Origin: Eledone cirrhosa
Taxonomy: Eukaryota
Assembly (NCBI GenBank): GCA_964016885.1
Contig: OZ024742.1
Location: forward strand, 199,454,001 to 199,518,000
DNA: 64,000 nt
Reading direction: 5' to 3'
Shown in pieces: positions 20,854 to 22,104 of this stretch. Position numbers and translations under genes: made by a program. Below the pieces are notes generated by a model. It worked only from the letters and a program-made list of their open reading frames with translations. It was not told where the DNA came from and searched no databases. Within the stretch, counting starts at the first letter, position 1. Each line of letters starts with the position of its first letter.

Positions 20854-20857
<4 letters not shown>

Positions 20858-22104
20858 GGAAAAAATGAAACAAAATTTCATTTCCCACTCTTAGTACGGG
20901 TGTTACTTAAATATAAGCATGTACACGTACATACATATATGTATACAGACGTACAGTAGTATGTATATATATATACATACATGCACACATATATATATGT
21001 ACGTATGGATTCACCGAACATTTATTATAATGCTCGGTGTGTTTGTAAACAAACATCCCGTATCAAGCCGTAGTGTCTAGCAACCATCGTTGCTCGTTTG
21101 TTCAACACTGACAAAGGAACGCTGTACTAGTTTCAAGCTTATTAGCTATCATCAGCAACGTATACCTTCCTGCTAGATTGTTGAACGTATATTACCTTAT
21201 GCATATTAACGGCTGAGTAGCCCAATTTGCATATCGAGTGAGTTAATCGGCCGGGTGCACCGAAAACAATAAACGGAAAAAAATGAAACGAAATTTCATT
21301 TCCCACTCTTAGTACGGCTGTTACTTAAATATAAGTATGTACACGTACATACATATATGTATACAGACGTACAGTAGTATGTATATATATATACATACAT
21401 GCACACATATATATATATATATGTACGTATGGATTCACCGAACATTTATTATAATGCTCGGTGTGTTTGTAAACAAACATCCCGTATTAAGCCGTAGTGT
21501 CTAGCAACCATCGTTGCTCGTTTGTTCAACACTGACAAAGGAACGCTGTACTAGTTTCGAGCATTATAATAAATGTTCGGTGAATCCATACGTACATATA
21601 TATATATGTGTGTGCATGTATGTATATATATATACATACTACTGTACGTCTGTATACATATATGTATGTACGTGTACATACTTATATTTAAGTAACAGCC
21701 GTACTAAGAGTGGGAAATGAAATTTCGTTTCATTTTTTCCGTTTATCGTTTTCGGCCGATTAACCCACTTGATATGCAAATTGGGCTACTCAGCCGTTAA
21801 TATGCATAAGGTAAGTATATACTTTCGGACGTTCAACTATCTGGCAGGAAGGTATACGTTGCTGACGATAGCTAATAAGCTTGAAACTAGTACAGCGTTC
21901 CTTTGTCAGTGTTGAACAAATAAGCAACGATGGTTGCTAGACACTACGGCTTAATACGGGATGTTTGTTTACAAACACACCGAGCATTATAATAAATGTT
22001 CGGTGAATCCATATGTACATATATATATGTGTGCATGTATGTATATATATATATACATACTACTGTACGTCTGTATACATATATGTATGTACGTGTACAT
22101 ACTT
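20854..22104. repeat. H3 retrozyme-like units: ~1.7 tandem copies then inverted copies, TA-flanked
   Basis: Unit starts 20854 and 21271 (417 bp apart); inversion at ~21559. HHRs at ~21114-21168(-) and 21849-21903(+). Confidence 0.88.

Follow-up and report, generated by a model that had tools for sequence, protein, structure and literature searches.

The interval 20,854–22,111 of the 64-kb window (the whole stretch of Eledone cirrhosa DNA that we analysed, contig OZ024742.1, positions 199,454,001 to 199,518,000) is a two-armed insertion of a 420–470-base non-coding repeat into a (TA)n tract. The left arm (20,854–21,567, minus strand) comprises one full 417-bp unit (20,854–21,270) and a 5′-truncated unit (21,271–21,567); its outer 3′ end lies at a fixed site of the unit, S2, against the (TA)n target tract (20,811–20,853). 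The inverted right arm (21,558–22,111, plus strand) holds 1.3 units and ends at a second fixed site, S1, next to a short (TA)n tract (22,112–22,120). Each arm carries a complete type I hammerhead motif: one with a normal GAAA box at 21,108–21,176 on the minus strand (C3 at 21,155, predicted cut after A17 at 21,125), and one with a U10.1·U11.1 mispair at 21,841–21,909 on the plus strand (C3 at 21,862, predicted cut after A17 at 21,892). A hammerhead 3′ half, from G12 onward (21,532–21,558, minus strand), is severed by the inversion junction at 21,558 and is unable to fold alone.

Two sister loci bring the total in the window to nine complete hammerheads and this one half copy. At 13,596–15,828 (minus strand), 4.8 tandem units of 466–470 bp, more than 99% identical and assigned to subfamily A1, carry five hammerheads (C3 at 13,930, 14,398, 14,864, 15,332 and 15,800), with the 3′ end of the array at S2, abutting (TA)n. 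The third locus is again inverted, with a left arm at 58,154–58,541 (minus strand; C3 at 58,502, H17 = U; 3′ end at S2) and a right arm at 58,570–58,907 (plus strand; C3 at 58,663; 3′ end at S1), so that both inverted loci share the combination of S2 and S1 outer ends. No open reading frame of at least 150 amino acids overlaps the three loci, and no reverse transcriptase (RT) or GIY-YIG match was found in the 12 reading frames scanned of the window's 27. By these scans, the loci are not autonomous Penelope-like elements (PLEs), which would carry an RT plus GIY-YIG reading frame between PLE terminal repeats (pLTRs). At the gathering threshold, Rfam returned no hammerhead match in the window, only a tRNA-like one.

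Several neighbouring features were recorded alongside. A tRNA-like SINE head occurs three times around the 4.8-unit array, identical over 106 bp (13,436–13,545, 15,829–15,952 and 16,257–16,380); two copies are reversed, one on either side of the array, and one lies forward after a long (AT)n. This arrangement looks as if target DNA had been duplicated in inverted orientation when the array inserted, or as if a target duplication exceeding 110 bp had formed. An inverted duplication with arms of about 55 bp (58,010–58,137) lies in the flank directly adjoining the 58-kb insertion. A second, unrelated hammerhead-like family, with a short helix II opening in U·U and a longer helix III, is present at 1,700–1,810, 57,755–57,880 and 63,230–63,310, twice as a head-to-head inverted pair beside (TA)n, and recurs at three loci elsewhere (L146, L150 and L159). 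Further afield, a 522-codon reading frame (49,555–51,123, minus strand) that matches the Pfam entry NCD3G (class C GPCR, E = 3e-11) is probably a host gene exon, and long Thr/Pro-rich coding-like tandem repeats (47-bp, 6-bp and 3-bp periods) plus a 19-bp minisatellite of about 100 copies occupy 23,160–26,195 and 45,659–47,599.

Anatomy of the hammerhead

The window copies follow the pattern CUGAYGA, 14 nt, GAAACUAGU, H, and a 6-bp helix I closes the motif. All nine full copies carry the core C3 U4 G5 A6 N7 G8 A9, G12 A13 A14, A15.1–U16.1 and H17, and helix I is open while helices II and III are loop-closed, a topology that marks the motif as a predicted type I hammerhead; a type III reading of the label "H3" used in the first-pass annotation was rejected. 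Helix III has just 2 bp, which enclose a 2-nt loop within the ACUAGU palindrome (ACTAGT in DNA), and, being invariant, is uninformative on whether pairing is conserved. H17 was A, U or C, never G, across 19 representatives. Overlooked earlier, stem II opens with U10.1·U11.1 in all window copies, in place of the usual, though not obligatory, G10.1–C11.1 closing pair.

Most of the sequence differences listed in the first-pass annotation are real. Stem I reads CGGTG/CATCG in the five minus-strand copies of the 13.6–15.8 kb array and at 58,502(−) and 58,663(+), and CGTTG/CAGCG at 21,155(−) and 21,862(+), a change from G·U to U·G at pair I.3; N7 is C at 21,862 only; the 58-kb copies have U at H17, those at 13.9 and 21 kb have A; and loop II alternates between taacaa and taataa. 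The bulged extension of stem I, given as AAGG-tat-ACG / CGT-t-CCTT, has that form at 21 and 58 kb, but at 13.9 kb it is TGGG-taa-ACG / CGT-t-CCTG; pairing is preserved there, giving a second double change that had gone unnoticed. The putatively dead copy with an extra A near 21,130 was a misreading: a regular expression tolerating extra As found exactly GAAA in all 10 boxes of the window, including 21,134(−), and the copy that is broken is instead the half ribozyme, which the inversion junction at 21,558(−) interrupts at G12.

The layout of helix III resembles that of hammerheads described as acting in pairs. In the lone 89-nt motif, the core CUG pairs with the UAG of helix III in an inactive form (z only −1.7), and the ACUAGU palindrome is predicted to pair with itself at −4.8 kcal/mol. 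Circular minimum free energies of nine monomers (25 shuffles each) gave z values of −4.1 to −15.2, as expected of a highly self-paired monomer, with an alternating purine-pyrimidine rod inflating these values. Six unpaired bases are invariant in 14 of 14 alignment rows, namely a U and an A in the stem I bulge, the opposing U and three As of loop II, in keeping with, though not proof of, the contact between stem I bulge and loop II proposed earlier. Dimeric variants of PLE hammerheads were reportedly described in 2017. Canonical metazoan type I hammerheads are described as having a 6-bp helix I, a helix II of about 4 bp and a 1–2-bp helix III with a palindromic loop, and as working as dimers (PMC4209133), a model also reviewed in PMC6765202. 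The architecture of the present family matches that canonical form. The family resembles the hammerheads of pLTRs in being type I with a short palindromic helix III, as far as these are characterized in Cervera and de la Pena 2014 (PMC4209133), and differs from them in lacking an associated reading frame and in its full 6-bp helix I with a bulged extension, canonical rather than minimal.

Copies and base pairing across the genome

Searching the 3.0-Gb genome with the exact core returned 39,523 matches, against one for a reversed control, which places the motif beyond chance. G-C occupies 10.1–11.1 in 9,453 of these, and 1,510 start with C or A at 10.1, mostly as C·A among the first 100 listed; the G10.1–C11.1 pair is missing in about three quarters of copies. 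U10.1–U11.1 occurs naturally in hammerheads and is the mispair tolerated best (Perreault et al. 2011, PMC3088659), rare in the collection described there but accounting here for 28,091 of the 39,523 matches. Loss of the G-C pair may reduce activity, and we count this against the explanation favoured below. Copies with G-C form a sister family, B, 59–63% identical to family A over the unit. Across subfamilies, units measure 414–538 nt with a GC fraction of 0.32–0.38 and one type I hammerhead each, and the largest array holds 31 near-identical units (C1, 5.738–5.752 Mb). One subfamily, A3 (L082–L110), with C·A and sometimes C·C or C·U at 10.1/11.1 and copies about 85–92% identical, looks older and has far fewer copies than the U·U and G-C forms. 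A copy seen at L056 and L179 has U·U at pair I.3 and is possibly an intermediate or recombinant between the G·U and U·G types.

We assessed covariation by shuffle tests and by tests on single branches. The three window loci, from which the first-pass annotation had argued for a conserved fold, are unconvincing alone, as just 2 of 23 pairs changed on both sides, a count matched by 63 of 500 shuffles; on single branches, A1 versus A2 gave P = 0.018 and A2 versus the 58-kb type P = 0.74. The claim fares better with genome-wide subfamilies. Across 14 rows spanning them, 9 of 23 pairs were double-changed, helix I was 100% paired in all 14, and pair I.3 took four types (G·U, U·G, A-U and U-A). The cell count or covariation score of this alignment was reached by none of 500 shuffles, although the simple count of pairs with both sides changed was matched by 117 of 500. 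The rows were hand-picked and are mutually related, and single branches were therefore tested as well, using a table of substitutions derived from the unit. With helices read from family A, changed pairs were still paired in family B in 10 of 12, 11 of 13 and 9 of 11 cases, against expectations of 4.9, 5.4 and 4.3 (P = 0.002, 0.0008 and 0.003), in three tests that share one branch. Covariation in stems I and II is free of ascertainment, since those stems lie outside the search pattern, whereas the identity of A and B in the core and helix III is ascertained and carries no evidence, family B having been found by the core pattern.

Pairing was also kept beyond the ribozyme. We masked the alternating purine-pyrimidine rod and predicted the structure of the whole unit from one family alone; double changes between B1 and A2 then kept pairing in 15 of 21 (P = 0.004) and 15 of 18 (P = 0.001) cases, and all five A–B comparisons exceeded the null in pairs kept (total P 0.0001–0.036). 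Within families, none of six whole-unit comparisons was significant (P 0.12–0.25). The covariation signal is in effect carried mostly by one long branch, A versus B, which we also count against the favoured explanation. Nonetheless, helix pairing held between subfamilies about 40% diverged supports conservation of the fold, and the retention of hammerhead base pairs over such distances makes it likely that the RNA cuts itself.

Individual copies behave differently from lineages. The pattern with all positions fixed had 24,211 matches, rising to 26,976 when 10 core positions were freed and to 27,387 when 10 helix or loop II positions were freed, so that 10.2% of copies carry a change in the core and 11.6% in helix or loop II. 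Core variation as high as that of the flanks had been named in the first-pass annotation as an outcome speaking against conservation, and per copy it is what we find, but this is the wrong test of selection because copies decay neutrally after insertion. Among the first 100 core-free matches listed, 10 have scattered core changes, comprising seven different substitutions, with three in one local cluster. That the core decays much like its neighbours in each copy implies that constraint acts on the lineages that amplify. No amplified dead-core lineage was seen in the sampled copies. Searching instead with an anchor outside the ribozyme gave 30,800 matches, and the 30 listed all have the ribozyme downstream, 27 with exact cores and 3 with one change; four further anchor regions lacking a listed core included one copy (L210) in which the GAAA box is deleted. 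Because known subfamilies served to design this anchor, it could miss dead ones that are distant. These counts agree with the earlier proposal that amplification was confined to subfamilies whose ribozyme worked, activity itself being predicted. Overall, the initial observation was partly confirmed, and its interpretation is partly supported and strengthened by the genome-wide data. The same argument, from a ribozyme more conserved than the rest of its repeat, has been published for the cricket pDo500 satellite hammerhead, with compensatory changes in stems I and II and N7 as the variable core position; in the account given in that paper the comparison runs across species and concerns a satellite (PMC2837043), whereas ours concerns dispersed subfamilies of one genome with retrotransposon-type ends.

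Insertion ends and Penelope-like elements

Across 73 non-overlapping loci (17 named overlapping loci plus L062–L081 were left out of the end counts), 3′ ends concentrate in every subfamily at two sites that correspond by homology. In A2 these lie roughly 220 and 275 nt beyond the cut site, and the ends mostly abut (TA)n; the flanks being (TA)n, target-site duplications are unreadable. Among 116 segments, 87 have 3′ ends that fall into two neighbouring tenths of the unit, and no 3′ end coincides with the cut site; 5′ ends spread evenly along the unit with no pile-up at the cut site (3 of 116), a count biased by the selection of loci for an intact ribozyme. The combination of set 3′ positions and dispersed 5′ ones points to reverse transcription. 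Most insertions span 0.7–1.7 units; 57 of the 116 segments exceed one unit and only 3 exceed two, within loci of about 3 kb, and the rarity of the longer ones speaks against the explanation favoured below. All 30 listed matches of the upstream anchor continue through the cut site, and a cut linear monomer primed at S1 or S2 could therefore not have been their template.

An inverted arm is present in 39 of the 73 loci. Twenty-two of these 39 divergent loci combine S1 with S2, three have S1 twice, none has S2 twice and 14 have another end; by simple arithmetic, about 12 mixed loci would be expected by chance among the 25 fully classed. The spacing between S1 and S2 is 52–59 nt in family A and 68 nt in family B.

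The same genome contains long PLE reading frames with RT and GIY-YIG domains. From 10,595 GIY-YIG candidates genome-wide, 150 were scored and 50 loci examined. One of these, L141 (C1:145,869,000–145,878,500), apparently represents an intact PLE and hence a candidate enzyme, with a 938-codon frame encoding RT plus, at its C terminus, a GIY-YIG domain, terminal repeats of about 1.07 kb that are 98% identical and each carry a U3–A8 hammerhead, and a 3′ end in (TA)n. Two PLE families have a pair of end sites each, which abut (TA)n, at 72–76 and 142–144 nt or at 122–123 and 177–183 nt past their own hammerheads. Their two-site spacings (about 55–60 and 68–70 nt; L141–L156) resemble those of the retrozyme, a match that may hint at which PLE moves which subfamily, A or B. 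A U·U helix II base recurs in three unrelated hammerhead families of GIY-YIG loci, all with a 6-nt palindromic helix III. In local alignments, the retrozyme showed no likeness to two pLTRs (19–151 of 300 shuffles scored as high), and the PLE partner is accordingly deduced from the insertion footprint. BLAST of monomers against the 50 GIY-YIG loci gave unit matches in three only (L135, L151 and L152). These three were rejected as a PLE parent, as the matches look like separate insertions in (TA)n tracts; insertion junctions were read for L135 and L152.

Proposed mode of spread and its alternatives

With its tandem non-coding unit, low GC, dispersed high copy number and retrotransposition-type ends, the family has the sequence hallmarks of a non-LTR retrozyme. 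It shares with the metazoan non-LTR retrozymes of Cervera and de la Pena 2020 (PMC7229834), as set out in that article, non-coding tandem units of a few hundred bp with GC below 45%, a single canonical type I hammerhead in each unit, arrays ranging from dimers to large multimers, and a highly self-paired monomer. Points of difference are the unit length (414–538 here versus about 170–400 nt there) and the U·U or C·A at the helix II base in most copies here; the part of PMC7229834 on which we draw mentions neither (TA)n targeting nor two fixed ends nor inverted arms. Coral and mussel retrozymes of that study cut and form circles, as the present family is predicted to do. In partial tandems, an inverted 5′-truncated arm, an optional terminal tail and microsatellite targets, it matches PLE insertions as outlined in PMC8557442. 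Our literature search found no paper on this retrozyme family; the supplements of PMC7229834, PMC4209133 and a 2026 preprint (bioRxiv 10.64898/2026.07.22.740005) may list it, and one search was swamped by general cephalopod papers. On this basis we place the family in a known class rather than a new one, with cleavage and expression predicted.

The explanation we favour, and regard as probable, is that these are two-armed (TA)n insertions of an element that has kept type I hammerhead pairing between subfamilies and spreads as a non-LTR retrozyme through PLE machinery, as has been proposed for similar repeats in other animals. Tandem transcripts would cut themselves as dimers, with neighbouring hammerheads pairing their ACUAGU palindromes to build helix III and the stem I bulge docking on loop II; a lone monomer would fold into the inactive form. 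The released monomer would be circularized, presumably by a host ligase, and the RT/endonuclease of a PLE would copy the circle into the genome. The PLE protein may prime at the two internal sites 52–68 nt apart, using both ends of one break; priming internally on AT-rich targets has been reported for a PLE protein (PMC11167929). Only lineages that keep the fold would amplify, their single copies then decaying neutrally.

A less likely possibility retains the same element and PLE partner but makes the template an uncut, longer-than-unit linear transcript, with no need of a circle, the hammerhead being kept for occasional or protein-assisted trimming of ends or as a fold bound by the PLE. The predominance of insertions of 0.7–1.7 units suits this, as do U·U and C·A at 10.1/11.1, which suggest weak cutting, and the pairing kept well beyond the ribozyme. 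In the experiments described in PMC11167929, moreover, core mutations did not prevent a lizard PLE from inserting in vitro, and none of the reads stopped at its cut site. Arrays of up to 31 near-identical units fit it poorly, every amplified subfamily in the sample has an intact core, and related coral and mussel retrozymes cut and form circles according to the results presented in PMC7229834. On activity itself the 2026 preprint gives a caution: eight of nine predicted Xenopus retrozymes stayed uncut in vitro and one was cut (bioRxiv 10.64898/2026.07.22.740005).

We think it improbable that the units are truncated pLTRs of an unsampled autonomous PLE rather than an independent non-autonomous family. 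Their insertion signature does equal that of PLE ends, the candidates beyond the 50 GIY-YIG loci examined leave room for such a parent, and the same preprint reports that Xenopus retrozymes match pLTRs and argues that retrozymes derive from them (bioRxiv 10.64898/2026.07.22.740005). Against this, the sequence shared by the 73 loci is the repeating unit only, with no common extension bearing a reading frame in the flanks seen, the units lie head to tail, and the sampled PLE reading frames carry different hammerheads. Scarcely tenable, finally, is a dead relic that spreads as DNA, its apparent covariation being either inherited or the product of A-to-I editing within stems. In its favour, A-U to G·U accounts for several of the one-sided changes and the core of each copy decays at the background rate, but transversion double changes are kept (G-C to U-A, C-G to G-C, A-U to U-A), rare variants on the sense strand show no significant excess of A>G (99 versus 77, P = 0.11; A4 and B2, with fewer than five loci each, were skipped), and the ends bear the signature of reverse transcription.

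Returning to PLE-driven spread of a self-cutting retrozyme, a bolder version can be put forward tentatively, and we would not yet bet on it. The whole 420–470-nt circle may be a selected RNA structure, read by a PLE enzyme dimer from two fixed internal starts at both ends of one (TA)n break; the U10.1·U11.1 hammerhead, common to unrelated PLE hammerheads, may be a tuned-down ribozyme, dependent on dimerization or protein, that lets circles last long enough to be copied. If so, the family would constitute a natural 40,000-copy mutagenesis record of PLE recognition in trans.

Collectively, neutral decay of single copies combined with pairing kept between subfamilies is the pattern expected if amplification depends on the RNA fold. 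About three quarters of this family would escape descriptor searches that require pairing at 10.1–11.1. Whether and how PLEs mobilize retrozymes is a question in the literature, and the matching two-site (TA)n ends of the retrozyme and of PLEs within one genome, which supply a defined RNA and candidate enzymes, make that question testable.
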